A DNA stretch of 37,511 bases, from contig ML992503.1 of the NCBI GenBank assembly GCA_010093995.1, positions 242,984 through 280,494 on the forward strand. The letters run 5' to 3'. Both the position numbers and the translations under genes were made by a program. This stretch comes from Elsinoe ampelina (taxonomy: Eukaryota). Each line of letters begins with the position of its first letter. Position 1 is the first letter of the stretch. Below are positions 3,035 to 33,130 of this stretch, piece after piece. Under the pieces are notes generated by a model. That model did no database searches. It saw nothing but the letters and a program-made list of their open reading frames with translations, and was not told the DNA's origin.

Positions 3035-3090
3035 TATATAATAGTAAAATTTAGGCTAAGTAATAGCTACTTATATAAGACCTAACGATT

Positions 3091-3260
3091 ATAGAGGTAA
3101 GTTAGTAGTAGGTAAAGTTAAGAGGCTTTCTAATAACCTACTACCTACCTCTAACTCTACCCTACGCTAATATACTCTAACTCTACTCTACCTAGCGTGC
3201 TAAGTAGAGTCTACTTAACTCTACCCTAGGTGAGTTATTCCTAACTCTATAACTACTCTA
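3091..3260. mobile_element. Terminus of a hAT-family DNA transposon (TIR plus subterminal repeats); the element body lies to the left
   Basis: Ends ...CTCTATAACTACTCTA, the same 16 bp that end at 21935. It is a diverged inverted match to 9803-9970 and has CTAACTCTA/CTACTCTA subterminal repeats. Confidence 0.7.
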
Positions 3261-3345
3261 ATTACTAATATTAAGGAAGAATTAAAGTATTATTATATTA
3301 TATTATTATAGTAAAGAAATTTATTACTCTACCTATACTATTTCT

Positions 3346-3908: not shown

Positions 3909-3917
3909 AGTAAAGTA

Positions 3918-4118
3918 TGTTAAGAATATAGCTCTCTCTAGATAATTAGGCTATAAAGTTATATAACCTTAAGTTATATAATGCTAAGGCCTAGGGATTT
4001 ATAGCTGTTCTTTCTTCTAGTAGATAGACTTCTTAATTAATTAACTCGTCTATTACCTAACTAGTGTACGATTAGTTCTATATAATATTCTACCCCTAAA
4101 CGTGTCTTCTACTTAATA
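3918..4118 (+). repeat. 5' LTR of Copia A copy 2
   Basis: TG...(C>T)A ends; direct repeat of 9086-9286. Confidence 0.96.
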
Positions 4119-4132
4119 GGTTATAAGCCTAG
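4119..4132 (+). promoter_or_regulatory. Primer binding site, internal (half) tRNA-iMet type
   Basis: GGTTATAAGCCTAG here and GGTTATAAGCCCGG in copy 1, directly after the LTR. This is the RIP form of GGTTATGAGCCC, as in Ty5/copia. Confidence 0.8.
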
Positions 4133-4587
4133 AGCTATAGTATAAGTATAGAATTGTATATACCGTAGTTAAGTATCTACGTTATTAAAATTAGGCCGGA
4201 TTCTATTAGTATTCTCCTCCGTTTCCTCTCTATTATCTTAATCTTAGATAGATTAGTAGAGGCAGTATAAAGCGTAAAAGACTAGTTACTTAGTACATTA
4301 AGTAGGACATATTAAGACGTCTACTATAGATTTATTTCTATAATTGTATAACAGCTGCTATTTATTAGCTATAAATAACTAAACAATAACTAAACAATAT
4401 TTGTTTTATTACTATTTTCTCTCTTAAGATTAAGTACCTATTAATCTTATTAACAATTATCTAGTTAAGACTAGTATAGAGATCTTAACACCTAGAAGAA
4501 TTAACTTAAAGGTTATTAACCTCCGGATTCCAACCTTTATTTATTTATTTATAAAGTTCTTTTCTACTCTAGAACTTATCTTTAGCT

Positions 4588-7500
4588 ATAAAAAACAATA
4601 ATACTTAATTAAGGCAGCTAGTACCTATACTATCTAAAGATAACTATAAGAAGTAGTTCTAATAAATAGAGCTCTAGCTTATATTAAAGAAGGTATTATA
4701 GACTCTTACTTCCCTTACTAAACTGTTAGTAATAACTCTAGGGTTATTATTAACTTCCTTATTTAACTCCTAGTATTCTCCTCTATTAGTAGAGGAGAAT
4801 AGTACTACCCTTTACTAGATTTATAGATATATCTCTAAGAGAGATTAAGAAATAATTTAGGAATAGTAGTAGGCTAAACTAGCTTAGGAGAAGCTAAAGA
4901 GCAAGTATATAAAGTAGATAGGTATATAGGTAAGACAACTTTAGAAAGAGTTTATAATATATACTATAGGTAATAATATAACTATCTTAGATGCCTAGTT
5001 ATACCTAACTATATTAGGAAGGAGAATTAATAAGTCTTTAAAGATTAAGTAATACTCCTTACTAATAATAAGAATTTAAAGACTACTTAGTGCTCTTCTA
5101 GCTTTATAGTTAACTATAAGAGATACCTTAGATACTTAACTCTACCTTAGTATAGATAAGATCTATAACATTCTTAAAGAAAAGAAAGCATAAAAGAGAG
5201 AAGGGGAATCTACTATACTTATAAGAGGTAAGCTATAATAGGGAACTAGTAGGAGCTTAAATTATATATATATCTTATATAAGGAACCTAGACACTCTAT
5301 GTTAAGGTGTTCTTATTTCTAATAAGCTAAGAAGTATATCTAGCTATTCTATAGAGTTACTAAAAGGAGTAGCTCTATAAGGAGATAGTTACCTAAGCGC
5401 TAGAAACTACTTAAACTTATAAGATAGCTTACTAAGAGAATAGACTTCCTTAAAGTAGCTAAATTAAGAAGGAGAGGTAAAGCCTATCTAGCTACTAAGA
5501 GTAGTTTATTATTAATATCTCTATCTCTACTACTAGAAGTTCTATCTAGGGATAAAGAGCTTAAAACTATAGGTTCTATATTAGAGGTTTAAGGTAAGCT
5601 TCTATATTATTAGTAGATACTTAACTCTAGAGTATCTAACTATATAATAGACAAGCTAACTCTCTTTAGAGGCCTATTAAGCAAGATTCGTACTTAATAG
5701 ATCTAGGTTAAAAAGAGTTACTTTTAGTTATAGTTAATAGAAACTATAGTTATTAAGACTAAGAAGAGAGATAAGATAAAGATATAGGCTCTTTATGTAC
5801 CTAATCTTAGTATTAATTTAGTCTCCTATTATAAGCTATACTCGGATTTAGGGGTTTCTAGAGTTTTTAATTTAAATTTGTTTCTTATCCTTAATTAGTA
5901 GAAGCAACTATTGCTTAAAGCTAGAATTTAAGAGGAAGTATATATTATCTAATTCCTCTTTAAGTAATTAGCTAATTAAAAGCCGCATTCTAGATCTAAG
6001 CCTAGCTTAATTCTAGATCTAGCTAATTAGGATTTAGCATTCCTTACTACCTAGCTTATAATTATATTATAGACTAAGTATGTATATCTAACCTAGGATA
6101 AGTAATAAGAGGATCTTATTAACTTAGGACCTAATAACTCTAAGATAGAGTATTAGCTCTAGTATAGGAGATTTACTTACTTTAGAATTAAGAAGCTTAG
6201 GGATCTTTATAAAGTTATAACCCTTAAGAAACCTATTAACCTAAACTATAATCTATCTATTCTATATAAGGTCTATTCCCTTACTAAGATAAGGAATAGA
6301 AAAGGTAAAACCTTATAGAAAAGACTAGAGGTTCTTTAGCTTATCTATACTAATATCTATAGCTTAATTAAAGTAAGTAGAGAAGAATTTAGATACTTTC
6401 TAGAGCTTATAGATAGCTACTTAAGAATAATATAGATTAGTCTACTTAAGATAAGAGATAAAGCTCTATAAAGGCTTATTAAGTAGAAGCTAAGAGTTAA
6501 GAAGGAAAGTAATACTAAGGTTAAAGTTACTAGATTAGATAATACTAGTAAACTTAATAAGATTCTAAAGTAGTAGGAGCGCTAAGAAGATATCTATTAT
6601 ACAACTACTAAGCTATATAATTTAATTTAGAATAGACTAGTAGAGAAAGACATCTAAACCTTAGAGAATAGTATAAGAGTAATACTTAAGGACTTAAAGA
6701 TGCTAAATAAGTTCTAGCCTAAAGTAGTTTAGGTAGATATATACCTAAGGAACAGGACAGTAACTAGACCTATAATCAATAATAAACAAGTTATACCTAT
6801 TAAGGCCTATATAGGCATTAAGCTATTAGTTAATTATATTAGAGTCTAGGGCTATAAGGTATATACCTATATAAACCTAAAGTCCCTTTCTATATATAGA
6901 AGAAAAGATAAGCTTATAGATAGAAGGAGAGTAGGAGTATTCCTTAGCTATATAGATAGAACTAATAGGATATATAAGATATAGGTATTTAATAGGAAAG
7001 TAGTAATTATATTACTAAATGTTAAATTCTCTAAGTTTAAGAAAGATAGTAATATTAATCTTAGTATTAGGATTAATACTATAAGCAATTAAGCACTAGT
7101 TAGGAGACTAGTTAGTAGACTAACTTAGATTTAGACTAAGGTTAGATCTAGGATAGACTAACTAAATTAGCCTATTTAAAATAAAGCACCTATAGGAAGA
7201 ATCTTCTTATATATTAAGATCCTAAGAGTTAACCCTATTAACATTATAGATTTCTAACATAGAGAAGAGCTAATAGTTTAATCTTTACTAACTAACTATA
7301 TAAGTTAATCACTTAAGAGATTAAGAGATAATAACTCTAATAATAAAGGCTCTAAAGCTAAGTACTATAGAGCTTTTATTACTAAGTATATTAATTAGCA
7401 AGATAAGGTTAATAAGATTACTATAATAGTCTCTATTAAGTAACATATCCTAATCCTAAGGGACTACTATAAGGCTATTACTAATCTAGTATAGGGAAGC

Positions 7501-9085: not shown

Positions 9086-9286
9086 TATTAAGAATATAGC
9101 TCTCTCTAGATAATTAGGCTATAAAGTTATATAACCTTAAGTTATATAATGCTAAGGCCTAGAGATTTATAGCTGTTCTTTCTTCTAGTAGATAGACTTC
9201 TTAATTAATTAACTTGTCTATTACCTAACTAGTGTGCGATTAGTTCTATATAATATTCTACCCCTAAACGTGCCTTCTACTTAATA
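9086..9286 (+). repeat. 3' LTR of Copia A copy 2
   Basis: Direct repeat of 3918-4118, preceded by a purine-rich tract and followed by the TSD. Confidence 0.96.
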
Positions 9287-9623
9287 AAGTAAGAGGTTAT
9301 TTATATATAGCTAAGAAGTTAAAGTTCGTATATAAAATTTTAATATATATAAAATAGTAAAAAGAAGAGGCTAGAGTAAGAAATATAAAACCTATTATTA
9401 GATATGCTATTTACTATTAATAATAAAGAATAATAGAATAATAGTAAATAACTTATATAATAATAGCTTTCTTATTCCTTACTCTAGCTTCTCTTTTTAT
9501 TATTTTATACATTTATAAATTATAAATTTCTAACTCTAACTTTCTCTTTATACCTTTACCTCTTTTACTTACCTTATATATAATTTATATACTATAAATA
9601 CTCTTTTTATTACCTTTAATTAA

Positions 9624-9802
9624 ATATCTATACCTATAGAAGACATTAAGATAGAGTAGAAAGAGTAGGTAGTAATTAAGTAAGAAGAAGACAATAGAGA
9701 GAATGTTCTAAGAGAATTATTAGGGGTATTAATTATAGTCTCTTATTATATATAGTTACTAACAATACTAGAGATTTAATTCTAAGTAGTAGAAAATTAA
9801 AC
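9624..9802 (+). pseudogene. Truncated 5' fragment of the acidic-tail ORF3 paralogue (exon 1, intron 1, start of exon 2)
   Basis: Colinear with 20389-20567; similarity ends abruptly at the hAT TIR at 9803. Confidence 0.75.
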
Positions 9803-10190
9803 TAGAGTAGTTAGTAGATAGTAGGTATTCTACTACGGGTAGAGTAGAGTATTATTTCTTAGCATAGTAGGTATAGGTTAGGTAGAGTATTCTTAGTAGT
9901 AGGTATAGTAGGGGTTAGGTAGTAGATATTTTATATACCTAAATACTCTACCTACTATAACTTACACCTATATATAGGTAGGTATTACGTAAGTAATAGA
10001 AGCTTCTCTTAATTCTCTAATATAAGACATTATATAGAATTTAAAATTAGAAAGGACAGTAATAATTATAGTCTCTAATTATAGCATCTTATATGCTTAG
10101 TTATTATAATTATAAATAGTTCTATTCTATACCCTTATAGATAATCTTATATGCTTTACTAGAGGCTTGTTATTATTAATATTATTATTC

Positions 10191-10394
10191 TAATTACGAC
10201 TAGCAAGATAAGGGAGTTAATTATATCTATTTATTAAGATATCGAGACTTAGAAGAAGAAGAAGAAAAGCTAGTATACAAAGCACGCGTAATATCGAGGG
10301 CGGAGCAGCTAGAAGCCTAGGCCGCGATACTAAAATTACATAACTAATCTAAACTATATCCTAACTAAATCTAGTTCGTATCTATCTCGTATTA
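10191..10394 (-). repeat. 3' LTR of Gypsy B copy 1
   Basis: Direct repeat of 16376-16579; the PPT complement CTATCTTCTCTCTT is adjacent at 10395. Confidence 0.95.
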
Positions 10395-10717
10395 CTATCT
10401 TCTCTCTTAAGTGTATTTACTCTTAAATACTATTATATATTATTTATTAATCTATTTCGGCCTTAGCTTATCTATGTAAGAGTCTAGATAGTTATATAGC
10501 ACGTTAGCTACTCCTTTAAGATTGTTAATTAGCCACTAGGTAAGATTCTCTAGATAGCTCTTCTAGCTTATATAAGTAACTAGTTTACTACGTAGTATAT
10601 GTATATTAACTACGTCGTCTACCTCGTATTTCTCTTTACTATTAACTTCTATCGGAGGTAGTTCCTTAAAGACTTAGCCTAGTAGAGAGTTATTTAGATG
10701 CTTAGTAAGTAGATTAG

Positions 10718-10921
10718 TAATACGAGATAGATACGAACTAGATTTAGTTAGGATGTAGTTTAGATTAGTTACATAATCTTAGCATCGCGGCCCGGGCTTC
10801 TAGCCGCTCTGCCCTTAATATTACATGTGCTTTATATACTAGCTTTTCTTCTTCTTCTTCTAAGTCTTAATATCTTAACGAATAGACGTAATTAACCCCC
10901 TTATCTTACTAGTCGTAATTA
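10718..10921 (+). mobile_element. Solo LTR of Gypsy family B, in opposite orientation inside Gypsy B copy 1
   Basis: Complete 204-bp LTR with flanks ATTAG (10713-10717) and ATCGG (10922-10926), which differ only by transitions. The uninterrupted site is present in copy 2 near 32861-32865. Confidence 0.93.
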
Positions 10922-13900
10922 ATCGGCGTAGAATATAGAGTAGATTTATTATAGCGTAGCTAGTAGATCTAGCTTATATACTAATAGTAACTACTTCTCG
11001 AGGATCTTATATAGACTAACGTGTTTTAGTAGTAGCTTTAGATTGCTATATAGCTAGAGGTTCTTTATCGATAACTATACTAAATCGCCTACCTTAAACT
11101 CTATCGGCTAGTAGTGCTTATTAGCTTATTCTACTATACGCGATTAGGCAATAGCAAGGTTAGCTTTAGTAATAACTAGCGCTTCTTTTAGTTGTTTAGT
11201 AAGTGTATAGATGTCGACCTTATTTAGCTTAGCTCTTGTTAATAGTGCGTTAAAAGGGAGTTAGAAGCTTAGCCTTAGCTTATATCCTCTAGTAACCTTA
11301 AATAGTAATAGCTTAGTACTCTCTAATAGGTTAACGTTAGTAGAGAACTCTATAACTAGTAGAATAAGAGTCTAATTACTAAAGCGTATAGCGTATAAAT
11401 AAATAACTTACTCGAACTTACAATTTATAACTTCTAATTAGCTGTCTATCTATAGATGCCCTATAGTAGATAGTTTAGTAGTAATCTTTAGGATTTAGTA
11501 GAGCCTCTTCTATACGTCGCTAACGAACTAAGAGCTATAATCTAAGGTAATACTATCTAGTAGGCTATATAGTTTCTACACATAGAAGAATAATAGCTTA
11601 GCTATCTTAAATATAGAGGTTCCTTCTTCTCCCTAGAAGTAAGGGATTAAGTGTTGTTCCTTAGACAAGTAATTGACAATATATAGTACTACGTTATAGC
11701 TATCTACTAGAGGTAGGCTAGTAACGAAGTCTATAGTAATGTATTACTAGGGCCTAACCGGAATAGGTAATAGTAATAGAGGGCTAGCTAGTAAGCTATA
11801 GCGAGCCTTTAAGCGCTTATAGTTATAATAGTTAGCGATAAACCTCTTAACATTAGAATTACACCCGGGGATATAGAAAGTAGACTTAATTATAGTAGCC
11901 GTCTTAGTAGCTCCTCCGTGTATGTAATTCTTTAATATATAAACTTCTTAGATAACTTTTGTAGCTATAGAGAAAGGCATAATTAATCGGCTAGTAGCGT
12001 ATAGTATTCCCTTCTTAATTATAACATTAGTCGATAGTAACTATTTTCTCTTTAGGAAGGCTTCTATTATATAGTAGACACTATAAACTGTCTCGAAGTT
12101 AGAGTCTTATAAGTTAGCTTTAGCTACTTCGTCGAAAAGGAGTAAAGGCTCTTCTATAGCGGAGATAGGTACTATATAGATACCTAGCTCGCGAGCCGAA
12201 ATAGGCAGCGAAATAGGTGCTAAACTAGATCTTAGTTTAGCCTAGATTAGTAATTTAGCTCGGATACGACCTAGATTTAGTTCGTTAATAATATGCTAAT
12301 CTAGCACTTTATATAGTAATAGCGTCTAGCGTAGATTAGAGTCTTCTTTCGAACGTAGTACGTCTCTATTTCTTCTTATAAGTGTGTTAGTCTTACTATT
12401 AGCGGCGCTAGACCTATATATAATCTTAAAGTTAAACTACGTAAGGTAGAGGGCCTAGCGCACTTAGTAGCGTAATAGCTTCTAAGTCTTTATAAAATGC
12501 ATTAAGGATTAGTAGTTAGTAAGGACGTAAATAGCCTTATCGGATTAAGTACTTATAAGCTTAGAGGCCTATTCCTTAAAGGCTTAAACGATTACTAATA
12601 GCTCCTTATTATAGATTACGTAGTTATGTTCGGCTTTGCTTATAGATTTACTAAAGAAGGTAACAGGCTAGAGAACGTCGGAATTGTTATATTACAATAG
12701 AATTCTAGTAGTAGTAGTATCGGAGGCGTCGGTCTTAATAACTACTTACTTCGAGTAATTAAAGTACGCTAAGATAGAGGCACTTATAATAGTATACTTT
12801 ATGTAGTTAAACGTAGTAGTATACTTATTATTTTATAGCGTAGCGTCCTTCTTAAGTAGGTCGTTTAATAGCTTAGCGATAGTACTAAATCCCTTAATAA
12901 AGTAGTAATAGTAGCTATAGAAACTAATAAAGCTTCTTATCTAAGTAGTATTACTAGGGGCTAGTTGTTTCTAGGCTTATATAGCTTTAACCTTCTTTAG
13001 ATCTATCTTAACTCTATCTCGACTAATAATAATACTAAGATACTTTACTTCTGTTAGGTAGAACTTGCTCTTCTTAATATTAGTATTTAGGTCTAAATTG
13101 TAGAGACGTTAGAGTACTAGCTTAATATACTTAGCGTACTCTTAGCAAGTGCCGTCGGTATAGATAAGAATATTATTAAGATAGATTAACACGAAGCGCT
13201 TAAGCATGTTAACAAAGTTATAATTTATAAACCTCTACTATACTATAGAAGCGTTAGTAAGGCCGAATAGCATTACTAACTACTTAAAGTTACCTATACG
13301 TATAGAGAACATAGTAAGGTCTTTACTATCGATAGAGTTATAGAGGTAGTAGAAGGCTTAATAGATATTAATCTTACTAAACTATTTAGCTTTACTTACG
13401 CGCGTAAGTGTTTCTTTAATAAGAAGTAAAGGATAGATATCTCGCTTAGTTACCTCGTTAAGGCTATAGTAATCGATGTAAAGGCGAAGTTCGCCGCTAG
13501 ACTTATAAACAAAGAGAATAAGCAAGGAATAGCTAGCTAAGCTTAGCGTAATAAAGCCTTTATTAAGGTGCTTATAGATAAATAGCTCTACTATATTAAG
13601 CTCCTCTAGTAATAGGCAGCGAAGAGGTTTAGTACGTAGTAGTTTAGCTCTATTCTTAAGTGTAATTTAATTGTTAAAATCTAGCCGATATAGAGGAAGC
13701 ATATTAGATTACTCTTTAGAGAAGACGTTAGTAAACTTCTATAGCTCTTCTAGGAGAACTACTATAGGGTCTAGTTCTAGCTCGGAAGCTATCTAGTAGT
13801 AGTTCTCGATATTCTTTACTAAGATTATAAACACCTTATTCTTTTAGTATTTAGCTACTAATACAAAGGTAGCGGCGCTAATAAAAGCAATAGTTAGCTC

Positions 13901-16375
13901 TTCTTACTTAGTGTTACTTACGTAGGTAGGTACGTAGGAGAACTTATATATTAGCTAAGTACTATAAGAGATTAGGTTAAACTCTCTCTAATTTAGCTTA
14001 AAGTTCGACCTAAGAGCTAGTAGTCGATATAGTCTAGTTTATCCTATCTTAGCGGCTAAGCTAGAACCTAGTTCGTAAGTTAAATTAGAACTAAACTAGT
14101 TCCGAACTAGAGTAGTAGCTTTACCGAGCTAGATTTCTAGATCTAAGCTAGGCTTAGATCTAGATTCTAGTCTTTTAATTAGCTACGGTAGCTCCTACTT
14201 AATAACTGTCGGTAAAAACTCTTCTTTGTATATAACTTAGCTATGCTTATAGTCGATAGTAGCCCTATTAGCCTTAAGCTATCTAAGGCTAAGGATAATA
14301 TTAAATCGGCTAATATCTATAATACGGAAGGTAGTAAAGTTGTTTAGCTTACTAGAAATAGTAGTAGTAAGAGAGACGCTATAAGTAACTTATTCTATCG
14401 GAACACTATTATAAGTCTAAAGCTAAATAGAGCTAGCTAGTGCCACCGGACAGCTAAAACTCTTTAGCTTATTAAGAATATTATAGTTAACTATAGCGCC
14501 GATAAGCGCGCTAGTATCGATAAAGACTTAAAGTGCAATAGTACAAGAGTAGTTATAGAGGTTATAAATAGTAATAAGAGTTATAATAGCGAGGATATAG
14601 TAGCTAACGACGCTATTTAATAACTATATACCTCCGGATCTATCTCGAATTACTCTTATTCTACTAGAGAATAGAACTTGTTCTCTAGCTACTTATTTCT
14701 CTAGCTAGATAGGCTAGTAGACTTATAATCTATTTCGAGGTTAAACTAAGACTAAACTAGATCTAGTTCGTAAGCCGAACTAGTATTAACTTAGTTACTT
14801 AATTCGGCTAAGCGATCCTAGAGCTATTATATCTCTTCTACGGCACTAATACGTATAGGACGTAAAGCGGCGTAAGTAGCCTTCTCTAAGGCGCTAGCTA
14901 TATACTTAGTAGAGATATAGCTAGGCTTACTACATATATAATAGGTAAGTATTAGAGCTAGACGAAAGAGCTATAGGGCTCCTCTAGTAATAGAGCAAAA
15001 GGTAGCTAGAGTAGTAAGCGCGGAAGTAGAATAAGACACACAGATTAGTACTATAGTAACGTAGCTTATAGCTAGGCTAGAGTATAAGGCCTAAGTACGC
15101 TTAGTAATAAGGTTGCTCTATTAAATATTATAGTTAGTAGCGTAGGCCTTTATAATAAAGGTAGAGAGGTTATTAGTATTAAAGTTAATAAGAGTAACGC
15201 GTAGTTTATTAGATATCTTCTAACATAACTAGTAGAGCTATTTATCCTTAGCAATCTTAGCGCGAAGAGCGTACTTATTAAATTCGCTAATAAAGGAGTT
15301 AAAAGAGGTATTACGCTAGAAGAGGCTAGTAAACTAGGCGCGCGTAGTAGCCTTATAGTTAGGGTCTTCGAAGCGCTAAGCTAAGATACTAAGGGTAGCT
15401 TTAACGTTAAGGGTGTTATTACCGGCAAAGTCTATAATAAGAGTATATACTTCGCTAGAAAGGTGCGAGTAGAGATAGGTAAACTAGGTTACCTCGGTAG
15501 AGAAATAGTTAGTATTAGTACGTATCTTGTTCTTTATTTAGTGCTTAAAAACCTTAAACTGTTCTAGAGTGCCACTAGAGAAGATAGCGAGGTCTAGTAT
15601 CTTTTTAGACAATATAGTACCGTATATAGAGGGAGCTAGTATAGTACGTTCTATCTTAGCTCTTAGCTAGGCTAGTTTAGCCTTAAGTTTGCTAATGTCT
15701 ATAAGGTAGCGCGTAGTTTAGATAGTAAGATTATTAGTAGTACTATTAGTAGTATCTAGTTCTATTAGAGCGTTATCTAACTAGTTACGTAGGTTAAGAG
15801 TGTTAGCATATACTAAGTTATATACGGTAACCTATCCATCGTAGGTAGACTTAATAAAGGTAAAGGCCTTATATAGAGTAGTTATCCTATCTATCTCTTA
15901 TAGCCTCTTCTTAAGGTTAGTGTTACTAAGGCAGATAAGGTCGTAATAGGCTAACTAGACTAGTTCGTTATTGTTGTTAGCGGGGGGTAAAGAGATCTTA
16001 CTTACGTAGCAATTATCTTCGCTATAGTTAGAGTAAGCTATGCTCGGCGTAGTTAGTTATAAATAAAATAGTGTAAAAAGTCAACGCGTAACAAAGGAGA
16101 TATTAAAAATTTTTAGCCGGCGGCCTACTTTCTTTAAGAGTTGTCTATAACTCGACTTATTACCTTCTTCTTATATCTTCGAAGTTTGTAGTATTAACCT
16201 ATATAGTAGTAGTAAGGATCTATTATAGTGTACGTAGGAACTATAGTTATAATAGCTTCTTCTTTAATTCTTTAATTCTTCGTAAGTAATAGTTAGTAGT
16301 TATATAAGTAGTAGAATAACTAGATAATTTAATAGCTCCGTTGCTTAGTTATAGTTGTTCGAAGTCTCGATATAG

Positions 16376-16579
16376 TAATTACAACTAGCAAGACAAGGGA
16401 GTTAATTACGTCTATTCGTTAAAATATCGAGACTTAGAAGAAGAAGAAGAAAAGCTAGTATATAAAGCATATATAATATCGAGAGCGAAGTAGCTAAAAG
16501 CTTAGGCTATAATACTAAGATTACATAACTAATCTAAACTATATCCTAACTAAATCTAGTTCGTATCTATCTCGCATTA
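16376..16579 (-). repeat. 5' LTR of Gypsy B copy 1
   Basis: Matches the other four family-B LTRs. Confidence 0.95.
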
Positions 16580-19496
16580 TATTCTCCTTGTAATTGCTTA
16601 GAATAAAGTTACTCTCTTAAGAAGGTAGCTTAAGTAGGTTATCTACCTTGTCTATAGTAGTATCTTTATAACTACTATTAATAGTATCTTAATAACTACT
16701 AGTAATAATATTACTACTTAACAAAGAGAGACTTATTATAAGCTTTATAATAATAAGCTACTAGATAGTTTATATAGTAAGCTAGTGTCTTCTATTACTA
16801 ATAATATTCTTTACTATATTAAAGACATATTCGACACCTACGCTAGCTATTAGTATAGCAAGGATATTATAAGTAACTTTAGTAAGCTATAGAAACTTCT
16901 TCTTATTAGTCTTCTACTAATTAAGCAACTTAAATTTAGTCCCTAGTTAAATTCGAATAGGAGAGATACTAAGGTAATTCTTACTCTCTTAATATATAGT
17001 TTATTTCTCCTTCTCTTATTTTAGAGATATAGACTCTATACTAGATTAGAAGCTAAAGCTAGTCTACGGGGAGGTAATCTATATAGGTACTCGAGGTCGA
17101 CGGAACTAATCCTCTTTATTATTAGACAAGATTATAGCGTTAAGAGTTTTAGGTTAACTTAATAGTAATTTACTATTATAATAACTAAGGTAGTTAAGGA
17201 ACTACTCGCGATACTTCCCCTTATTAGTTTTAGCCTAGGTCTCGTCCTATATTACTATTAGCTTTACTATAATAATATATCTATAAGCTATAAACCTCGT
17301 AGGGAGTTAGCTTTTATAAAGGGTCAAGAATAGTGCTATAATTAAAGAGGTAACTTCTCTTATTATTAGTGTAAGAATAGTACTTTAATAGTTTATCTTA
17401 ACTATATTATACTACCCTTTTAACTACTATAGGCTAACGCTCCTTATTATTCTTCTTCTCGCCTATAATACTATTCTTAATTATATTAAGAAAGTCGAAT
17501 AGTTAATTATATATTATCTAGATATATAAGATCTATAGGCGGCTAATAGTACTTAGAGAGGTAGTTACTTCCTTAAAGTTCTTAAGTATTTTTATAACTA
17601 GCTTAAGGTAATTCTATTCTATACTATTAAGATAAAGATACTTAAGATTCTTATAGTCTAGATTACTAGTGTTATTACTAACTAAGTTAGATCTAGCACT
17701 AGTAGAGCCTTTTAGTATAATTTCCTACTTAAGCTATTTATTAATAAATAGCCTAAGCTCGAGACTATACTTATATATATTAAAGGTTAAGTTCTACTAC
17801 GTCTTAATATCTTAAATAATAACCTTACGCTCTCGAGGCGTTATAGTTTATTAGAGGTTAATAAACCTCTTAAACCGTTAAGGTAATTAGTTAATAGTAA
17901 TATAAGTTACACGAAGCTAGTAATTTATTAGACTATAATTAGAAATTGTAATTAGAAAGCTAATCTTCCGAAGCGAGTTTAGTACTAAGAGTTTAGTAGA
18001 GATATCTTTTAAGTGCTATCTTTTAAGCCTAGTAGCCTACTCTTCTTCCTTAGTAGTCTAAAGGTTAAGGTGCTTAATAATGTCTTATATAACTAGGTTA
18101 ATAATATATATAAGGCATAGAATAGTATTCTCTTATAAGTTCTATATAATACCTATCTATCTTAGAAGCTTATATATAGTCTTATATAACATATAATTGT
18201 TACTTACATTATCTATAGTAATTGCTAGAAGCTAGTTCTAGAGATTATACTACCGGAGTACCTATATAAGCTTAGTAGCTATATTCTGCCCTATATATTA
18301 ACTACGAAGTAGTACTATATCTAATAGTTGTTCCCGGAGATACTATTAGTTATTAATATAATAAGCTTTAATTGTAATAAAGCCTAAGTAGTTGTTAGTA
18401 GACTAGCTATTAAGTGTAATTAAAATCTTTATAGTCTTATTAAGATTCTATAATAAGCTTTTATAGAGAGTCTTAAATTTGTTAATAAAGAGTATAGCGA
18501 AATAACTACGGCTTAGTATAAGTACTCTCGGGTATAAGAACTATATAAACTATTAAAATAATAGTCGCTTAATAGTGTAGAAGGACTAATTATAGTTAAT
18601 AACTGTTTAAATAAGCTCTAATTAGAAGTAAGTAACTAAATATAATAGAACGTTTTTCTAATCGATTACTAGATAAGCTCGAAGTTATATAAGTACTCGG
18701 ACTACTAGTACTTTCTTATAGACTAGTCTTGTTACTTTCCTACAAAAATTTAACTCTCTGTATTTACTTATTACATTAGTACTATTCTTTCCTAGCGTAG
18801 AGTAGGTAAGAGCATTACTATACTATAGGTAGTAAATATATAGACGACTATCTAATACCTATATAGCTTCTCTAAAATATCTCTATACTTGTCTAGTTCT
18901 TAGTTTTAAGTTCTAGTATAGTATATAGAACTCCTTAGAGTAACTATAGCAAGATACCTAAAGTATTAAGTTCTACTATATTAAGAAGCTTTAGAGGTCT
19001 ATTTGTTCGTTAGGATATACTAAGGGATTAAGCGTTAGACACTTTAGAAGATACTATTATATAGGCTAACTACCCTTATTGCATTATTATATAGTAAAAC
19101 AATAATTAAGCAAATCTTAAGAGATAGAGATTACTATAACTAATAGAGTTAATAGAAGATATAGTTATAGATCGATTAGATCGTTAAAGTCTACTATAGT
19201 AGAGTAGAGGTTATATAGTATTATAGATAGTATAGGTGTTTATAATGTTATACTTATTTAGCTATATAATTTTAAATAATAGATTTGTTTTTAGACTATT
19301 AGAAAGTCTTCTCTACTATTACTTTACATAAGGCATTTTAAAACGCGCTAGTAGCCCCTATATAATTACAAATATTAATTATAACTAATATTTTTAATTC
19401 TAACCTTTAAAGTATATAATAAATAGAAAGGATTAAAGTATTATTATATTATATTATTATAGTAAAGAAATTTATTACTCTCTCTATACTATTTCC

Positions 19497-20049
19497 CTAG
19501 TATAAAGTACTACCTAAAGCTCTAACTCTTAATATATTACCGACCTAGAACTTCTTATAGTAGCGCTTAGCAAGGCTAGAGTCCTTAGCCTAGATAGTAA
19601 TATACTTAGTATAGATAGTATTAAGGTTTATATCTATATATAGTGTTAATAGAGAATTTAACATATATTAGATAAGTATATACCTTCTATATATCTAATA
19701 ATAAATGCCTCTACTAATTCCTAGAGAGCTCTAATTATACTAGTCTAGAAGTAAAGGTTAGACTTAAAGTTCTAAGTAATCTTATAGATAAGGCAAGAAA
19801 AGAGAAGCTTATAGAATAATAGAGTAATCTCTTTCTAGTAGCAACAAATCTCTTAGAGAGCGATAGCTAGCTTCTATTAGTTCTATACTATAATTAAAGA
19901 CTATAATAATTACTACTAGGCTTATATCTATACTTCTTTCTAGGCTTAGCTCTAGATTATAGTATCTTCTTTATAGTAGGTTACTTCCCTTTATAACCTC
20001 TTTCTCTAGGACTAGTAGTAGCTTAAGGACAATTCTTAGTACGTACTAT
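19497..20049 (-). pseudogene. Histone H3-like gene, copy 2 (exons 19914-20049, 19684-19866, 19497-19633; ~151 aa), RIP-inactivated
   Basis: De-RIP reading MARTKN...[54 protein letters not shown].EAF.....E/D.NL.AIHAKRVTIQAKD..LAKR, a clear H3 histone fold. Introns are 47 and 50 nt, GT..AG. The stop position is uncertain. Confidence 0.92.
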
Positions 20050-20109
20050 AGTAAAATAAGAGGTTATTTATGTATAGCTAAGGAGTTAAAGTTTATATAT
20101 AAAATTTTA

Positions 20110-20280
20110 ATATATGTAAAATAGTAAAAAGAGAAGGCTAGAGTAAGAAATATAAAACCTATTATTAGATATGCTATTTACTATTAATAATAAGAATAAT
20201 AGGAGAATAATAAATAACTTATATAATAATAGCTTTCTTGTTTCTTACTCTAGCTTCCCTTTTTATTATTTTATATATTT
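20110..20280. repeat. ~40-bp imperfect inverted repeat in the H3L/ORF3 divergent intergenic region (also at ~9343-9513)
   Basis: TATATGTAAAATAGTAAAAAGAGAAGGCTAGAGTAAGAAA (20111-20150) pairs with TTTCTTACTCTAGCTTCCCTTTTTATTATTTTATATA (20241-20277). Confidence 0.8.
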
Positions 20281-20388
20281 ATAAATTGTAATTTCTAACT
20301 CTAACTTTACCTTTATACCTTTATCTCTTTTACTTACCTTATATATAATTTATATACTATAAATACTCTTTTTATTATATTTAATTAA

Positions 20389-21657
20389 ATGTCTATACCT
20401 ATAGAAGATATTAAGATAAAGTAGAAAGAGTAGGTAGTAATTAAGTAAGAAGAAGACTCTAGAGAGAATATTCTAAGAGAATTATTAGGGGTATTAATTA
20501 TAGTTTCTTATTACATATAGTTACTAATAATGCTAGAGGTTTAATTCTAAGCAGTAGAAAATTAAATACTAGATCTCTTAGCGTAGTGCTAGTTAAACTA
20601 GAAAGAGCTATAAGACTAGATTTGTCGCTAGATACTCTAGACCTCTAAGTTAAAGCGCTTATGCTATTAAGTAGAGAGATTATACTTCTTAGCGTATATA
20701 TAAGGAGTAAGCTCTAGCTACTACTTATATAGTAGATTATAAAGTAGTTAGTACTTTACGTAACAAGATTAAGATAGAGAATAGATAGGACTAGCTCTCT
20801 ACTAATAAGTAGAATATTAAAATTAATAATGCTATTAATAATATAGAGGAGAAATACTTTAATAAGTAGAGAAGTAGTAAGTCTATTATTATAGTATACT
20901 ATTATAGTAGTACTAATTGTTATAGGCGAGTAGCTCGAATTTATATTTATATAGACCTATAAGAAATAGGCTAGTATTAGAAAGACTCTATAAAAGTAAG
21001 AGTATAACAAGATTATTAAGCGTATCTAAGATAATATAGTAGCAAATTAGTAAGGCGAATAATAGCTAATATAAGCCTATACGTATATCTATAGTACTAG
21101 TAGTATTATTAAGAAGCTATAGCGCTAGATTTACTAGGATAGCTATATAAGCCTTATTACTAACGATACTAACAATAAATAGACATATAAGATTTTTTTT
21201 AAGTAGCTTAAAGAGCTCTCTCCTATAGAATTAGTAGTATTATAGAATCCTAACTAGTAGTAAGTTTATTATAGTCTTTAATTATAGTATATTCTAACAA
21301 TTATATAGGCTAGTTATTTCTCTATCTCCTAAGTATAAATATATCTCCGAGCTTAAACTCTATAGTACTAGGCTATACTATAAAGGAGACAATAATAATA
21401 AGTATAAGAAGAAGGTTAAGAAGAATAAGAATAAGATTAAAAGAATATTAGATAAGGAAGCTAGTAGTAATAAGGATTATTATTTAGGTATTAAAGTTAA
21501 AGATAAGTCGGATAGTAAGGATAAGAATAATAAGATTATAAAGTACTTTAAGCTTAAGACTAATAGTAATAACAATAATAAGGATAAGAATAAGAATAAG
21601 AATATAAAGAATAAGAATACTACTAAGGTTAAGGATAAAGAGATATCTAATGCCTAG
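20389..21657 (+). pseudogene. ORF3: 4-exon gene of unknown function (~374 aa) with a long Asp/Glu-rich C-terminus, RIP-inactivated
   Basis: Intact ATG at 20389. Introns 20491-20536, 20877-20925 and 21260-21308 are all GT..CTAAY..AG, and splicing them keeps one frame to TAG at 21655-21657. In 21385-21654, GAT/AAT/AAG/GAA codons revert to D/E runs. Confidence 0.72.
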
Positions 21658-22393
21658 ATATAATAGAGATTAAAAGTATAATTCTATAAGTAGTAGTATT
21701 AGAGAATATAGTTTATAATTAGAATCTATTATTAGTAATTATACTTTGTTATTTTGTATATTACTAATAACCTATAGAGTGTAAAATTTATAACTCTACT
21801 CTAACCTACCCCTTAGCTTAGCTAACTCTAACTCTACCTACTCTCGCGAGAGTTAGCTAAGCCTAGAGGTAGGTTAGAGTAGAGGTAAGTTACCTAGAGA
21901 AAATTCTAACTCTACTCTACTCTATAACTACTCTAATTATAGATATAATTAGTTACTCTAGAATCTAGTATCTATAAGCTTAAGATGTTAGTAGTAGCTA
22001 AGATAAATACTAAGTGTAATCTAATAGTAATAGCTATATTAATTAACACTAGTAGAGTTAATTCCTTTTAATATTATACTTCTTTAGTAATAAAAGCCTT
22101 AATTCTCTCTTTAAGAGTCTTATTATTTAGCCTTTATTTAACCTCCTTTATAGTCTACTAGTTTAGTGTCTATCCTTCTAGCCTTAGATACTTATTTAAG
22201 TAATAGTACTTAATCTACTTATACCAGCCTTAGTATATATATTTAAGCTCCCTAGAGAAACTAGGTTTCTTATAAAGAATATTCTTAGTAGCTATAGAGA
22301 AGGCTATAGCTCCCTTACTAGCCTTTATAGTACTATATAGCTTATAGAGTTTATAAAACTGTCTAAACTTAGTAATTAGTTTAAGTATAGTTA

Positions 22394-24962: not shown

Positions 24963-27745
24963 CTAGTTGTTACCTAATAAGGTAAGACAATAACGCTAGC
25001 TAAAGCCTTAATATAATAAAGATCTATATATTAAATTACTTTATACTAGAAGCCTAGATATAAGAAAATAAGGTAAGAGTAATAATAGATTCGGGAGCTA
25101 ACTATAGCTACGTCTCTATAATAGTTACTAAATAGCTTAAACCTTATTAACATTAGAAGGAGTTACCTTACCTACTTACTATAGCTAATAGAACCTCTAT
25201 AGAGAAGGATAGGAAAGTTACTTAGGAACTATAAAACGTTATAATTAAAATCGGGACATATATAGAAAAACAATTAATCGATATAGTTAACATATAGTAT
25301 AATATAGTACTTAGCATAGACTAGCTTTAATAACACAATCTAGACATAGACTAGATTAAAGAAACACTTAAATTCCCTAAGTGTAATTATAGGACGTAGA
25401 GAGTATAATTAGCTCTATAGATACTAACTATAAGGATAGTATAGGTACGACTAATAGTTAGAGCTATTACTAGCGTAAGTAATTAAGTACTTCCGCCGGA
25501 ATATAAAGACTTTAAGGACTTATTTATAGAAAGGAAAGACATTGTAGCCTTGCTCTAATATAAACTATAGAATTACAAAATACCTTTTAAAGAAGGTAAA
25601 TCCCTAACACACTATTAAGGTCTAATACCACTATCGAAATAAGAGAAGAACGTTCTTAAGAACTACATCGACAAGTACTTACTTAAAGAATTTATACAAC
25701 TATTAAAATTACCTATTGTGCACGGAGTGCTTTTTACACCTAAGAAGGATAAGACATTATAAATATATATTAATTACTAGAAACTTAATACACTTACCCG
25801 AAAGAATTACTATTCTCTACCTAGGATTAACAAACTCTAAGACTAACTACTTAGAGCTAAATAGTTTACTATAATTAATATTAGGAATGCCTATTATTAA
25901 GTATAAATAAAGGAGAGCAAGGAGTAGAAAACAGCTTTTAGGATATAATAGAGTCTATATAAATACCTTGTTATACTCTTTAGGTTAACTAACGCTCCTA
26001 TAACCTTCTAAGAGTTAATTAATAACACTCTATAAGAATACCTTAATAACTTTGTCTTAGCATATCTAGATAATATTATTATCTTCTTAAAGACGTACGA
26101 TAAATATATAGGACATATTTATAAAGTGCTACGAAAACTAAAAGAGAAAGACCTACTAGTAAAACTCTCTAAGTGTAAGTTCTATAAGCATAAGATACAA
26201 TTTCTAGGCTATGTTATATCTACTAATAGTATTAGACCTAATCTAAAGAAGATTAAGTTAGTAAATAACTAGCTAGAACCTACAATAGTTAAGGAGGTTT
26301 AAGCGCTACTAGAGTTCTTTAACTACTACTATAAGTTTATTAAGGGATTCTCCGAAGTAGCTACGCTAATATCTAACCTTATAAAAAAGAAAACTAGCTT
26401 TGTCTTTAACGAAATATATAGGTAGGCCTTTAAGGAGCTAAAGCTTAGACTTATAATAGTACCTATCCTAGCACTCTTTAACCTAGACTAATAAGCACTA
26501 CTAGAAATAGATGCCTTAAACTTTATAATAGAAGTGTGTCTAGTATAGAAAGATATATAAGAATAACGCTACCTAATTATATACTACTTACGAAAAATAA
26601 CTAGGCCTAAACTTAACTACGACATATACGATAAAGAATTACTTATAATTATAGAAGTATTCCGTAAATAGTATATATACCTAGAAGAAACAACCTTACC
26701 TATATAAGTCTATACCGACTATAAGAACCTATTATATTAGACAATAACTAAGGTTCTTAATAGACAATAGGTTCGATAGTTAGAAACACTTACGAGCTAT
26801 AACTTTTAGATCTACTATGTTAAGGGATTAGAGAATAGCAGAGTAGACGCTCTTAGCTAATAACTAGACTACTTAAAGAATATAATAATAATAGAGGCCT
26901 CTATACTAAAGTAGTAAGATAGCGCTTTAGTCTATAAGCACCTAAAGGTAAAGCAATTATATAGCCTTACCTAGGAGCTTACGTAAGAATAGAAAAAAGA
27001 AGTTATTTAAATATACTATAATAACCTAACTACAGGACATAGCAGGATTAATAAGACTATTAAACTTATTATATAAAACTACCTATAGAAAGAACTCCGA
27101 AATAATATTAAGATATATATTACTATATACAATATATACTATAAGTCTAAGCACTTACAATATAAGCTGTATAGCCTACTATAACCCTTACTACTACTAG
27201 ATAAGCTATAATACGAGATAGATACGAACTAGATTTAGTTAGGATGTAGTTTAGATTAGTTACGTAATCTCGGCATTATAGCCTAGACTTCCGGCTACTC
27301 CGCTCTTAATATTATATGTGCTTTATATACTAGCTTTTCTTCTTCTTCTTCTAAGTCTTAATATCTTAACGAATAGACGTAATTAACCTCTTATCTTGCT
27401 AGTTGTAATTACTATATCGAGACTTTAAATAACCGCGACTAAGTAATAGAGCTATTAAATTATCTAGTTATTCTACTACTTATATAACTACTAACTATTA
27501 CTTACGAAGAATTAAAGAATTAAAGAAGAAGCTATTATAACTATAGTTCCTACGTACACTGTAATAGATCCTCGCTACTACTATATAGGTTAATACTATA
27601 AACCCTAAAGATACAAGAAGAAAGTAATAAGTTAAGTTATAGATAACTCTTAAAGGAAGTAAGCTACTAGCTAAAAATTTTTAATATTCCCTTTGTTACG
27701 CGTTGACTTTTTACACTGTTTTATTTACAACTAACTACGCTAAGC

Positions 27746-29098
27746 ATAGCTCGCTCTAACTATAGCAAAGATAATTGCTACGTAAGTAAAATCTCTCTAT
27801 CCCCTACTAATAACAATAATAAACTAGTCTAGTCGGCCTATTACAACCTTATTCGCCTTAGCGATACTAACCTTAAGAAGAGGCTATAAGAGATAGACGA
27901 GATAACTACTCTATATAAGGCCTTCGCCTTTGTTAAGTTTACCTACGACGAATAGGTTACTATACGTAACTTAGTATATACTAACGCTCTTAACCTACGT
28001 AACTAATTAGATAACGCTCTAATAGAACTAGATACTACTAATAGTACTACTAACAATCTTACTGTCTAAATAGCGCGCTACCTCGTAGACATTAGTAAAC
28101 TTAAGGCTAAACTAGCCTAGCTAAGAGCTAAGATAGAACGCGCTATACTAGCTCTCTCTATATGTAGTACTACGTTATTCGAAAAGATACTAGACCCCGC
28201 TATCTTCTCTAGTAGCACTCTAGAATAGTTCGAGGTTTTTAAGCACTAGATAAAGAATAAGATACGCGCTAATACTAACTATTTCTCTACCGAGGCAACT
28301 TAGTTTACCTATCTCTACTTATGCCTTTCTAGCGAAGCGTATACTCTTATTATAGACTCCGCTAGCGATAATACCCTCGACGTCGAAGCTGCCTTTAGTA
28401 TCTTAGCTTAGCGCTTTAAAGACCCTAACTATAAGGCTACTACGCGCGCCTAGTTCGCTAGCCTCTTCTAGCGTAACGCCTCTTTCGACTCCTTTATTAG
28501 CAAATTTAATAAGTATGCTCTTTGCGCTAAGATCGCTAAGGATAAATAGCTCTACTAGTTACATTAGAAGATATCTAATAAACTACATATCGCCCTTGTT
28601 AACTTCGATACTAATAACCTCTCTACCTTTATTATAAAGGCCTACGCTACTAACTATAATATCTAATAGAGCAACCTTATCACTAAGCGCACTTAGGCCT
28701 TACGCTCTAGCCTAGCTATAAGCCGCGCCGCTATAGTACTAATCTGTGTGTCTTATTCTACTTCCGCGCCTACCGCTCTAGCTACCTTCTACCCTATTAC
28801 TAGAGGAGCCCTATAGCTCTTTCGTCTAGCTCTAATACTTACCTATTACGCATGCGGCAAGCCTAGCTATATCTCTACTAAGTGTATAGCTAGCGCCTTA
28901 GAGAAGGCTACTTACGCTACTATATATCCTATACGTATTAGCGCTATAGAAGAGATATAATAGCTCTAGGATCGCTTAGCCAAATTAAGTAACTAAGTCG
29001 ATACTAGTTCGGCTTATAAACTGGATCTAGTTTAGCCTTAGTTCAACCCCGAAATAGATTATAAGTCCACCGACCTATCTAGCTAGAGAAACGAGTAG
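27746..29098 (+). pseudogene. Gypsy B gag (451 codons)
   Basis: CYACGKPGHIS.KC knuckle at ~28844-28885. Ends GAGAAAC-GAG-TAG (possible eroded slippery site). Same length as in copy 1 (14689-16041). Confidence 0.85.
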
Positions 29099-32000
29099 CT
29101 AAAGAACAAGTTCTATTCTCTAGTAGAACAAGGGTAATTCGAGATAGATCCGGAGGTATATAGTTATTAAATAGCGTCGTTAGCCACTACATCCCCGCTA
29201 TTATAACTTCTATTACTATTTACGACCTCTATAACTGCTCTTACACTATTACACTTTAAGCCTTTATCGACACTAGCGCGCTTATTGGCGCTATAGTTAA
29301 CTATAACGTTCTTAACAAGCTAAAGAGTTTTAGCTATCCGGTGGCACTAGCTAGCCCTATTTAGCTTTAGGCTTATAATAGTGTTCCGACAGAACAAGTT
29401 ACTTATAGCGTCCCTCTTACTACTACTGTTTCTAGTAAGCTAAATAACCTTACTACCTTCCGTATTATAGATATTAGCCGATTCGACATTATTCTTGGCC
29501 TTAGATAGCTTAAGGCTAATAGGGCTACTATCGACTACAAGTATAGCCGAGTTATATACAAAGAAGAGTTTTTACCGACAGTTATTAAGTAGGAGCTACT
29601 ATAGCTAATTAAAAGACTAGAATCTAGATCTAAGCCCGGCTTAGATCTAGGAATCTAGCTCGGCAAAGCTACTACTCTAGTTCGGAACTAGTTTAGTTCT
29701 AATCTAACTCGCGAACTAGGTTCTAGCTCGGCCGCTAAGATAGGACAAACTAGACTATATCGACTACTAGCTCTTAGGTTAAACTTTAAGCTAAATTAGG
29801 GAGAGTTTAAGCTAATCTCTTATAGCACTTAGCTAATATATAAGTTCTCCTACGTACTTGCCTATATAAGTAACACTAAGTAAGAAGAGCTAACTATTAC
29901 TTTTATTAGCGCTACTGCCTTCGTATTAGCGGCTAAATACTAAGAGAACGAGGTGTTTATAATCTCGGTAAAGGATATTAAGGACTACTACTAGATAGCT
30001 TCCGAGCTAGAACTAGACTCTATAGTAGTTCTCCTAGAAGAGCTACGGGAGTTTACTAACGTCTTCTCTAAAGAGTAATCTAATATACTTCCTCTATATC
30101 GGCTAGATTTTAACAATTAGATCATACTTAAGGATAGAGCTAAACTGCCACGTACTAAACCCCTTTGCCGCCTATTACTAGAGGAGCTTAATATAGTAGA
30201 GCTTTTTATCTATAAGCACCTTAATAAAGGCTTTATTACGCTAAGCTCGGCTAGCTATTCCTTGCCTATTCTCTTTGTTTATAAGCCTAGTAGCGGACTT
30301 CGCCTTTGCGTTAATTACTATAGCCTTAACGAGGTAACTAAGCGAGACGTCTATCCCCTGCCTCTTATTAAAGAAACACTTACGCGCGTAAGTAAAGCTA
30401 AATAGTTTAGCAAGATTAACATTTATTAAGTCTTCTACTACCTCTATAACTCTGTCGATAGTAAAGACCTTACTATATTCTCTATACACATAGGTAACTT
30501 TAAGTAGTTAGTAATGCTATTCGGCCTTACTAATACCTCTATAGTATAGTAGAGGTTTATAAATTACAACTTCGTCGACATACTCGAGTACTTCGTGTTA
30601 ATCTATCTTAATAACATTCTTATCTACACTAATAGCACTCGCCGAGAGTACGCTAAGTACATTAAGCTAGTGCTCTAACATCTCTACGATTTAGGCCTAA
30701 ATACTAACATTAAGAAGAGTAAGTTCTACCTAATAGAAGTAAAGTATCTTAGTATTATTATTAGTCGAGATAGAGTTAAGATAGATCTAAAGAAGGTCGA
30801 AGCTATATAAGCCTAGAAACAACTAGCCCCTAGTAACACTACTTAGGTAAGAAGCTTTATTAGTTTCTATAGCTACTATCGCTACTTTATTAAGGGATTT
30901 AGTACTATTGCTAAGCTATTAAACGACCTACTTAAGAAGGACGCTACGCTATAGAACGACAAGTGTACTACCGCGTTTAACTATATAAAGTATACTATTA
31001 TAAGTGCCTCTATCTTAGTATACTTCGATTGCTTAAAGTAAGTAGTTGTTAAGACCGACGCCTCCGACACTACTACCGCTAGGATTCTATTATAATATAA
31101 CAATTCTAACATTCTCCGGCCCGTTACCTTCTTTAGTAAATCTATAAGCGAAGCCGAACGTAACTACGTAATCTATAATAAGGAGCTATTAGTAATTGTC
31201 TAAGCCTTTAAGGAATAGGCCCCTAAGCTTATAAGCACTTAATTTAATAAAGCTATTTACGTCCTTACTAACTACTAATCCTTAATACATTTTATAAAGA
31301 CTTAAAAGCTGTTACGCCGCTAAGTGCGCTAGGCTCTCTACCTTACATAGTTTAACTTTAAGATTATATATAGGCCTAGCGCCGCTAACGGTAAGGCCGA
31401 CGCACTTATAAGGAGGAATAGAGATATACTACGTTCGAAGGAAGACTCTAATTTACGCTAGACGCTATTGCTACATAAAGTGCTAGATTAGCGCATTATT
31501 AACAAACTAAATCTAGGTCGTATTCGAGCTAGATTGCTAATCTAGGCTAAACTAAGATCTAGTTTAGCACCTATTTCGCTACCTATTTCGGCTTACGAGC
31601 TAGGCACCTATATAGCACTTATCTCCGCTATAGAAGAGCCTTTACTCCTTTTCGACGAAGTAGCTAAAGCTAACTTGCGAGACTCTAACTTCGAAACAGT
31701 TTACGGCGTTTACTATATAATAGGAGCCTTCCTAAAGAGGAAATAGTTACTATCGACTAATGTCACAATCGAGAAGAGGATACTATACGCCGCTAGCCGA
31801 TTAATCGTGCCTTTCTCTATAGCTATAAAAGTTATCTAAGGAGTCTATATATCGAAGAATTATACACACGAAGGGGCTACTAAGACGGCCGCTATAATTA
31901 AGTCTACTTTCTATATCCCTAGGTGCAATCCTAACGTTAAGAGGTTCGTCGCTAACTGTTACAACTATAAGCGCTTAAAGGCTTACTATAGCTTACTAGC

Positions 32001-33130
32001 TAGCCCCCTATTGCTATTGCCTATTCCGGTTAGGCCCTAGTAATACATTACTATAGACTTCGTTACTAGCCTACCCCTAGTAGATAGCTATAACGTAGTG
32101 CTATGTATTGTTAATTGCTTATCTAAGGAACGACACTTAATCTCTTACTTCTAGGGAGAAGGAGAAACCTCTATATTCGAGACAGCTAAGCTATTATTCT
32201 TCTATATATAGAAACTATATAGCCTACTAGATAGTATCACCTCGAATTGCGGCCCTTAGTTCGTTAGTAACGTATAGAAGAGGCTCTACTAAATCCTAAA
32301 GATTACTGCTAAACTATCTACTATAGGGCATCTATAGATAGACAGCTAATTAGAGGTTATAAATCGCAAGTTCGAGCGAGTTATCCGTTTATACGCTATA
32401 CGCTTTAGTAATTAGACTCTTATTCTACTAGTTATAGAGTTCTCCGCTAACGTTAACCTATTAGAGAGTACTAAGCTATTACTGTTCGAGGTTACTAGAG
32501 GATATAAGCTAAGGCTAAGCTTCTAACTCTCTTTCGACGTACTATTAATAAGAGCTAAGCTAAATAAGGTCGACATCCGCGCACTTGCTAAATAACTAAA
32601 AGAAGCGCTAGTTATTACTAAAGCTAACCTCGCTATTACCTAATTACGTATAGTAGAACAAGCTAATAAGCACCGCTAGCCGATAGAGTTCGAGGTAGGC
32701 GATTTAGTGTAGTTATCGACAAAGAACCTCTAGCTATATAGCAATCTAAAGCTACTATTAAAACACGTTAGTCCGTATAAGATCCTTAAGAAGTAGTTAC
32801 TATTAGTATATAAGCTAGATCTACTAGCTACGCTATAACGAATCTACCTCGTGTTCTACGCTAATCTACTTACTAAGTATCTAAATAACTCTCTACTAGG
32901 CTAAGCCTTTAAGGAACTACCTCCGATAGAAGTCGATAGTAAAGAGAAATACGAGGTAGACAACGTAGTTAACGTATATATACTACGCAGTAAACTAGTT
33001 ACTTATGTAAGCTAGAAGAGCTATCTAGAGAATCTTATCTAGTGGCTAATTAACAATCTTAAAGGAGTAGCTAACGTGCTATATAACTATCTAGACTCTT
33101 ACACGGATAAGCTAAGGCCGAAATAGATTA
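29090..33130 (+). pseudogene. Gypsy B pol (PR-RT-RH-IN-chromodomain)
   Basis: FIDT(G)A ~29263; LRLC.DY..LN ~30298; YL(DD)ILIY ~30604; TDASD ~31054; integrase HHCC ~31850-31968; W..I.IDFV..LP ~32038; chromodomain EKYEVD ~32944. Confidence 0.92.

Follow-up and report, generated by a model that had tools for sequence, protein, structure and literature searches.

The locus raises the question of what kind of gene lies divergently beside a transposon-borne histone H3-like gene (H3L), and what its product did for the element that carried it. The window, by which we mean the whole 37,511-nucleotide stretch of Elsinoe ampelina DNA that was analysed, consists of nested fungal repeats and shows a strong RIP signature throughout (TpA/ApT 1.6–2.6, GC 25–40%). 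The gene, ORF3, has four exons at 20389–21657 on the plus strand and reads as 374 codons followed by TAG (1,125 nt when spliced). Sequence comparisons leave very little doubt about its identity: fungal hAT transposons with H3L have a conserved third gene, and ORF3 is a copy of it that RIP has killed. This copy makes no protein.

The element and the ORF3 gene model

ORF3 lies in one copy of an element family that we call family A, whose parts in the window are as follows.

9803–10191, unstranded: transposase-side end of the hAT element, with a terminal repeat at 9803; uninterrupted copies (L037–L040 and L044) join the two pieces of the element
10191–16580, unstranded: inserted LTR-bounded repeat that splits the hAT element
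16580–21935, unstranded: main body of the family A hAT element, about 5.75 kb with the left piece; the terminal repeat ends at 21935
16600–18900 (limits approximate), minus strand: RIP-killed hAT transposase, with a dimerisation-domain motif within 16710–16985
19520–20049 (3' limit approximate), minus strand: RIP-killed H3L, with two introns, from near 19913 and 19683
20084–20306, unstranded: palindrome filling the H3L–ORF3 spacer, imperfect (75% over 225 nt), found in the family A copies that cover the spacer
20389–20490, plus strand: ORF3 exon 1, 34 codons
20537–20876, plus strand: ORF3 exon 2, 340 nt, where the intact homologs have an RG-rich hook region and a long basic helix
20926–21259, plus strand: ORF3 exon 3, 334 nt, with a long helix and a three-helix subdomain that includes the conserved G-[ST]-[GS]-G-[VI]-[LI]-E-K
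21309–21657, plus strand: ORF3 exon 4, including the formerly acidic tail at 21385–21654
20491–20536, 20877–20925 and 21260–21308, plus strand: ORF3 introns 1, 2 and 3, of 46, 49 and 49 nt, each GT..AG

The genes run in the order transposase (minus), H3L (minus) and ORF3 (plus), with ORF3 at one end of the element; the head-to-head position with H3L that had been read from the sequence is confirmed. We take the motif at 16710–16985 to be the hAT transposase dimerisation domain, which was compared by eye with the consensus of an element from Pyrenophora tritici-repentis (Ptr). By eye, an 8-bp target duplication is exact in four of the seven copies aligned at both ends and carries a single transition in one further copy; the window copy has none. 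These 8-bp duplications, together with the minus-strand transposase motif, identify the element as a hAT transposon. PF00125 matches sister copies of H3L. The spacer palindrome is a candidate shared two-way promoter, of which H3L and ORF3 may each have a mirrored half.

The surroundings hold further copies. Fragments of another family A copy lie at 9278–9802 and 3259–3917, and the former is cut inside ORF3 exon 2 exactly at the start of the window's element, suggesting that one family A copy sits in, or recombined with, another. Two inverted repeat pairs (1–3036 with 3916–6960, 93%; 10926–16581 with 27207–32861, 90%) have terminal repeats of about 200 nt and are probably copies of LTR retrotransposons. 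Close family A relatives across H3L and ORF3 also occur in two sequencing runs with two other organism labels, which cover 30 of 30 and 28 of 30 bins of window positions 19300–21950.

The sequence-only reading had proposed three introns that restore a single frame, and this was borne out by an intact homolog of 377 amino acids on a metagenome contig (L065), which we found with a degenerate pattern derived from the Ptr comparison. Its exons measure 120, 340, 334 and 340 nt, so that exons 2 and 3 have the same lengths as those of the window, and it aligns with the spliced window reading without gaps over 212 amino acids across the intron 2 junction (E 6e-13). The splice model is thus supported independently of the reading that proposed it. 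Against a profile of four intact homologs, spliced ORF3 scored 68.6 bits, compared with 40.6 for the best unspliced frame and at most 3.5 for 200 shuffled controls (146 of which scored). At the DNA level, exons 2 and 3 align gaplessly with those of L065 and agree in purine or pyrimidine at 66.6% of 674 sites, as against 51.1 ± 2.1% (maximum 55.3%) in 60 shifted controls. No spliced joints at ORF3 appeared in four sequencing runs, and two runs under the same species label that we guessed to be RNA yielded no contigs.

RIP accounts for the state of the gene. The window reading contains 34 internal stops, and all 15 aligned family A copies in the genome are dead, with 23–36 internal stops each; the start codon is ATG in six of them, ATA in eight and GAA in one. 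A genome search at the DNA level returned 35 matches, of which 12 span the full length. Among 321 polymorphic sites in family A ORF3, 289 show transitions only, and the transversions by codon position (5, 5 and 8) are too few to show selection. The differences between L065 and the window lean in the same direction (123 C>T or G>A versus 47 the reverse).

Intact homologs and sister families

A 5.6-kb H3L-carrying hAT element of Ptr was described with a central ORF whose function was not known (Manning et al. 2013, PMC3538342), and its consensus is deposited in supplementary file 2 of Dhillon et al. 2019 (PMC6710886). Judged by sequence, and with that consensus compared by eye, ORF3 is a homolog of the Ptr central ORF. 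Both genes, in this comparison by eye, diverge from H3L, agree in the positions and phases of their three introns, have an exon 2 of 113 codons plus 1 nt, an acidic tail and a repeated 9-mer in their introns, and have in common the motifs GF, R-[KR]-G, DRxA, EKRF, EWLE..KW, IYG and DxxW. The protein had been called unrecognised, which is right as to domains, but not as to the gene, which was already on record. Within the literature covered, which included few subscription papers and only part of the PMC3538342 supplements, no paper characterises the central ORF. What is new here is the conserved family, its fixed intron positions and, where context is visible, its constant pairing with H3L.

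A search with L065 retrieved three proteins (P0002–P0004) among 920 candidates, with E values from 2e-34 to 2e-51; one of the retrieved proteins is the Parastagonospora nodorum hypothetical protein HBI18_252410 (KAH5706829.1). P0002–P0004 are known from protein sequence alone, and on L065 the stretch upstream of the gene is only 227 nt long. Further along this contig (1842–2015), downstream of the gene and on its strand, an ORF begins whose start resembles, by eye, the N terminus of the Ptr transposase. The intact homologs are about 37–49% identical and keep length, introns and motifs. Their variable first exon leads into an RG-rich stretch with [RK]GRP and then a long helix of basic character; more long helices, a three-helix part containing G-S-G-G-V-[LV]-E-K and an acidic tail follow. 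A tryptophan that had been read at a stop codon in 'KWRDY' is doubtful, since all four intact homologs have glutamine at that place.

Two motifs stand out in these proteins. An AT-hook is defined by an R-G-R-P core with basic flanks; [RK]GRP is present in four of four intact homologs, despite the absence of a Pfam AT-hook match, and in the three proteins counted it is followed by a basic stretch with 16–19 K+R versus 6–10 D+E in 70 amino acids. At the other end, DFEGF forms the C terminus in two of the three full-length intact proteins, whereas L065 has DFWGL, which is not FxGF. In P0002, P0004 and family B, the FxGF comes after a run of acidic residues; family B is one of two further families in the Elsinoe genome, and F-x-G-F or its RIP product is found in nine of its nine anchored copies. 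In family A, by contrast, lysine replaces the proline of RGRP in all 15 copies, and no FxGF-like word occurs in any of the 14 anchored copies. Either RGRP and FxGF are dispensable or family A has diverged.

The two further H3L-hAT families of this genome, B and C, to which weak matches led, are diverged from A and from each other (15, 10 and 7 copies aligned for A, B and C). Both have an ORF3 homolog head-to-head with H3L and the same three intron positions; the phase-0 intron before 'GF' at the end of exon 1 is found in L065 as well as in B and C. The profile of intact homologs matches all ten B and all seven C copies. With the Ptr gene, compared by eye, a homologous ORF is therefore present in other H3L-hAT elements. 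In B and C, as in Ptr, the homolog occupies a central place and runs on the strand of the transposase, whereas in family A it is terminal and on the opposite strand, which indicates that the H3L–ORF3 pair of family A was inverted as a unit. In family B, roughly 1 kb separates the ORF3 homolog from the transposase (L046, 7150–8300), with no gene identified in this spacer. RIP-damaged histone-fold matches also lie outside the listed H3L places of A, B and C (G000, C8:576974, C4:1170969, C51:660 and C11:885902) and possibly represent a fourth H3L element family.

The acidic C-terminal tail, which had been predicted by undoing RIP on paper, is real. The last 90 codons of window ORF3 encode lysine or asparagine at 48 positions. 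At 19 of these, another copy has G at the first codon position (E or D), and 28 of the other 29 are preceded by T, the RIP target. By this count the original tail was 32–63% acidic, compared with 11–24% for exons 2 and 3. In the three full-length intact homologs, the last 90 residues are 38–43% D/E and 3–4% K/R, with aromatic residues spaced through them; intact tails are thus rich in D/E rather than K/N.

No domain had been recognised from the sequence, and our searches agree. Pfam gave nothing for seven RIP-damaged exon readings (best E 0.19), and two word-index searches with RIP-damaged readings gave no match; a HMMER search with the family A exon 3 alignment returned one ankyrin-repeat protein, which was spurious by eye. 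For six intact sequences Pfam had no match at the cut-off, chaperone domains included (best Elongin_A, E 0.003, below the cut-off), and a PDB sequence search with intact homologs reached only E 0.21. Structure models of the intact homologs were too weak (pTM 0.23 and 0.42) to speak against a known chaperone fold. With both models, Foldseek found nothing at E 0.001, and the best VIA-align matches were generic helices (Z 6.2, rmsd 5.9, 106 aligned; Z 4.3, rmsd 2.6, 47 aligned), with no histone fold listed among the matches to these low-confidence models. ESM Atlas gave no usable named match (best 0.85, lead level only). These blank fold and domain searches do not show a new fold. Viral and prokaryote collections searched with DNA patterns or P0002 yielded nothing, and none of 58 viral H3 loci had an ORF3 homolog.

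Putative function of the ancestral protein

We tentatively favour the view that the living ancestor of ORF3 was a putative chromatin adaptor that worked with H3L to keep the element active. The protein would have been nuclear and expressed together with H3L from the spacer between the two genes. DNA binding is predicted for its RGRP hook and long basic helix, plausibly to a family-specific 9-mer repeated in the element's introns and spacers, and histones, namely H3L together with host H4, would be carried by its acidic tail with spaced aromatics. The terminal FxGF of most relatives would provide a further contact, with elongation or chromatin factors. The element's own chromatin would stay open as a result, by analogy with what VANC does for VANDAL in plants. 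In favour of an adaptor, ORF3 has been kept next to H3L, its three introns in unchanged positions, in three diverged families. Against it, family A lacks both the proline of RGRP and FxGF, a long acidic tail is also a feature of many nuclear proteins other than histone chaperones, and, with every ORF3 copy in the genome killed by RIP, the system failed to shield these elements from it.

The 9-mer is confined to non-coding sequence of ORF3, with four copies in 144 nt of intron and none in 1,125 nt of exon. The family A 9-mer reaches 1.76 per kb in its own family, compared with 0.35 for B, 0.18 for C and 0.27 for other repeats; the family C 9-mer reaches 2.4 per kb in its own family, compared with 0.42 for A, 0.02 for B and 0.09 for other repeats. 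Each of the two thus has, in its own family, 4 to more than 20 times the density that it has in the other families or in other repeats. The motif that we tried for family B lacked such specificity (2.77 per kb in B versus 2.41 in A). L065 has seven related sites, T[TA]ATCAC, in 2,015 nt. Motif repeats are located close to the 5' parts of genes as well as in spacers. The first intron of H3L (19867–19913) is similar to ORF3 intron 3 (21260–21308), and each has the 9-mer twice at a 13-nt spacing. Most copies of the 9-mer have the sense orientation of the gene next to them, and the motif's end resembles a 3' splice site, so that it may act at the RNA level or be bound by the transposase.

When P0004 was modelled with host H4 and a stand-in H3, which is not an intact H3L, the complex predictions scored 0.31, 0.31 and 0.44 against a mark of 0.34, with controls at 0.00–0.01; these scores count neither for nor against histone binding. 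A dedicated H3L chaperone, the direction in which the sequence-only reading had pointed, whose tail and helices escort H3L–H4 dimers for deposition and which binds no specific DNA sequence, would fit the acidic tails with their spaced aromatic residues and the constant head-to-head linkage with H3L, kept through the inversion. It would leave the conserved RGRP hook, the basic helix and the family-specific intron motifs unexplained, and we consider it unlikely.

We regard it as similarly improbable that the protein was an accessory or targeting factor for transposition, which bound the transposase or the element ends and tethered insertion to chosen chromatin through its acidic, FxGF-bearing tail. 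The ORF3 family is found only inside hAT elements wherever context is visible, and FxGF combined with acidic sequence is known as a motif for tethering to chromatin (PMC9987994). In non-autonomous Ptr elements, moreover, the central ORF's N terminus, that of the ORF3 homolog, is fused to the transposase dimerisation domain, and transcripts suggest expression (PMC3538342). However, the fixed neighbour of ORF3 is H3L and not the transposase, as the family A inversion shows, and FxGF is absent from family A.

A plain transcription activator of the element's genes, with a basic DNA-binding helix, an acidic activation domain and no direct histone role, is less probable again. A basic-then-acidic layout with aromatics in the acidic part does fit activation domains, and the repeated motif is placed near gene 5' parts and in spacers; yet this reading leaves unexplained why every element of visible context keeps a histone variant.

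That ORF3 was neutral cargo, a captured host gene or fragment riding along with no help to the element, is largely refuted and very improbable. In its favour, H3L has been described as a transduplication (PMC3538342, PMC6710886), and no function is known for ORF3. But the intact homologs, at about 37–49% identity, retain length, introns and motifs, and when the genome was searched with P0002, all 11 matches had internal stops, so that neither a host source gene nor an intact host homolog was found, and nothing pointed to a fragment of an unrelated host gene.

Descent from H4, or a structural stand-in for it, after capture of an H3–H4 pair is extremely improbable: the position analogy drawn earlier stands for the head-to-head geometry, which is that of the host H3–H4 pair, but not for sequence, since host H4 reached at best E 0.93 by blastp against the proteins and had no tblastn match at E 0.01 in element copies, and the host pair, which is intact and on another contig, has intron positions that differ from those of H3L, no matching spacer and a single 31-nt match to the cassette, inside H3.

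Comparison with known systems

The closest relative with a described element is the Ptr gene, which is intact and central, whereas window ORF3 is RIP-dead, terminal and without the proline of RGRP or a terminal FxGF; its terminal place reflects the inversion of the H3L–ORF3 pair relative to the transposase. KAH5706829.1, P0002, P0003 and L065 are of the same family as ORF3, but intact. Mycosphaerellaceae hATs, as described by Dhillon et al. 2019, resemble the window in their RIP-killed H3-like genes and 8-bp target duplications; the H3-like hATs of P. fijiensis are about 9.5 kb and are reported there as not similar to the Ptr element. The same source reads the Ptr H3L as a recent, neutral capture (PMC6710886). 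The conserved ORF3 family and its constant pairing with H3L argue against that reading.

Two protein classes invite comparison by motif. With histone chaperones (Nap1, Asf1, nucleoplasmin, FACT and similar), the ORF3 family has a long acidic tract in common. A described motif that binds TFIIS N-terminal domains (TNDs) has FxGF behind an acidic linker; this TND-interacting motif consists of a short helix, an acidic linker and an optional FxGF, which is most important for human LEDGF and HRP2 (PMC9987994).

The nearest parallel for the putative role is VANDAL, a Mutator-like element of Arabidopsis. VANC proteins bind family-specific motifs of VANDAL elements and lift silencing (PMC10398659). As with ORF3, VANC is an extra gene in a DNA transposon with short non-coding motifs that differ by family, a feature that we found for families A and C but not with the trial motif for B. 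The two differ in kingdom and superfamily, and binding and demethylation have been shown for VANC, whereas the role of ORF3 is predicted; nor are VANDAL elements described, in the available part of that account (PMC10398659), as carrying a histone. By this analogy, it is conceivable, although we think it unlikely, that H3L-hATs are an old, stable three-gene design with its own chromatin system and not chance captures of H3. The ORF3 protein would then read the intron motif, load the element's H3 variant and let the element escape heterochromatin silencing, as a fungal counterpart of VANC that acts through a private histone. With intact homologous proteins now named, this is directly testable, and if the ORF3 protein does help a transposon-borne histone to resist silencing, it would represent a new counter by fungal transposons to genome defence.
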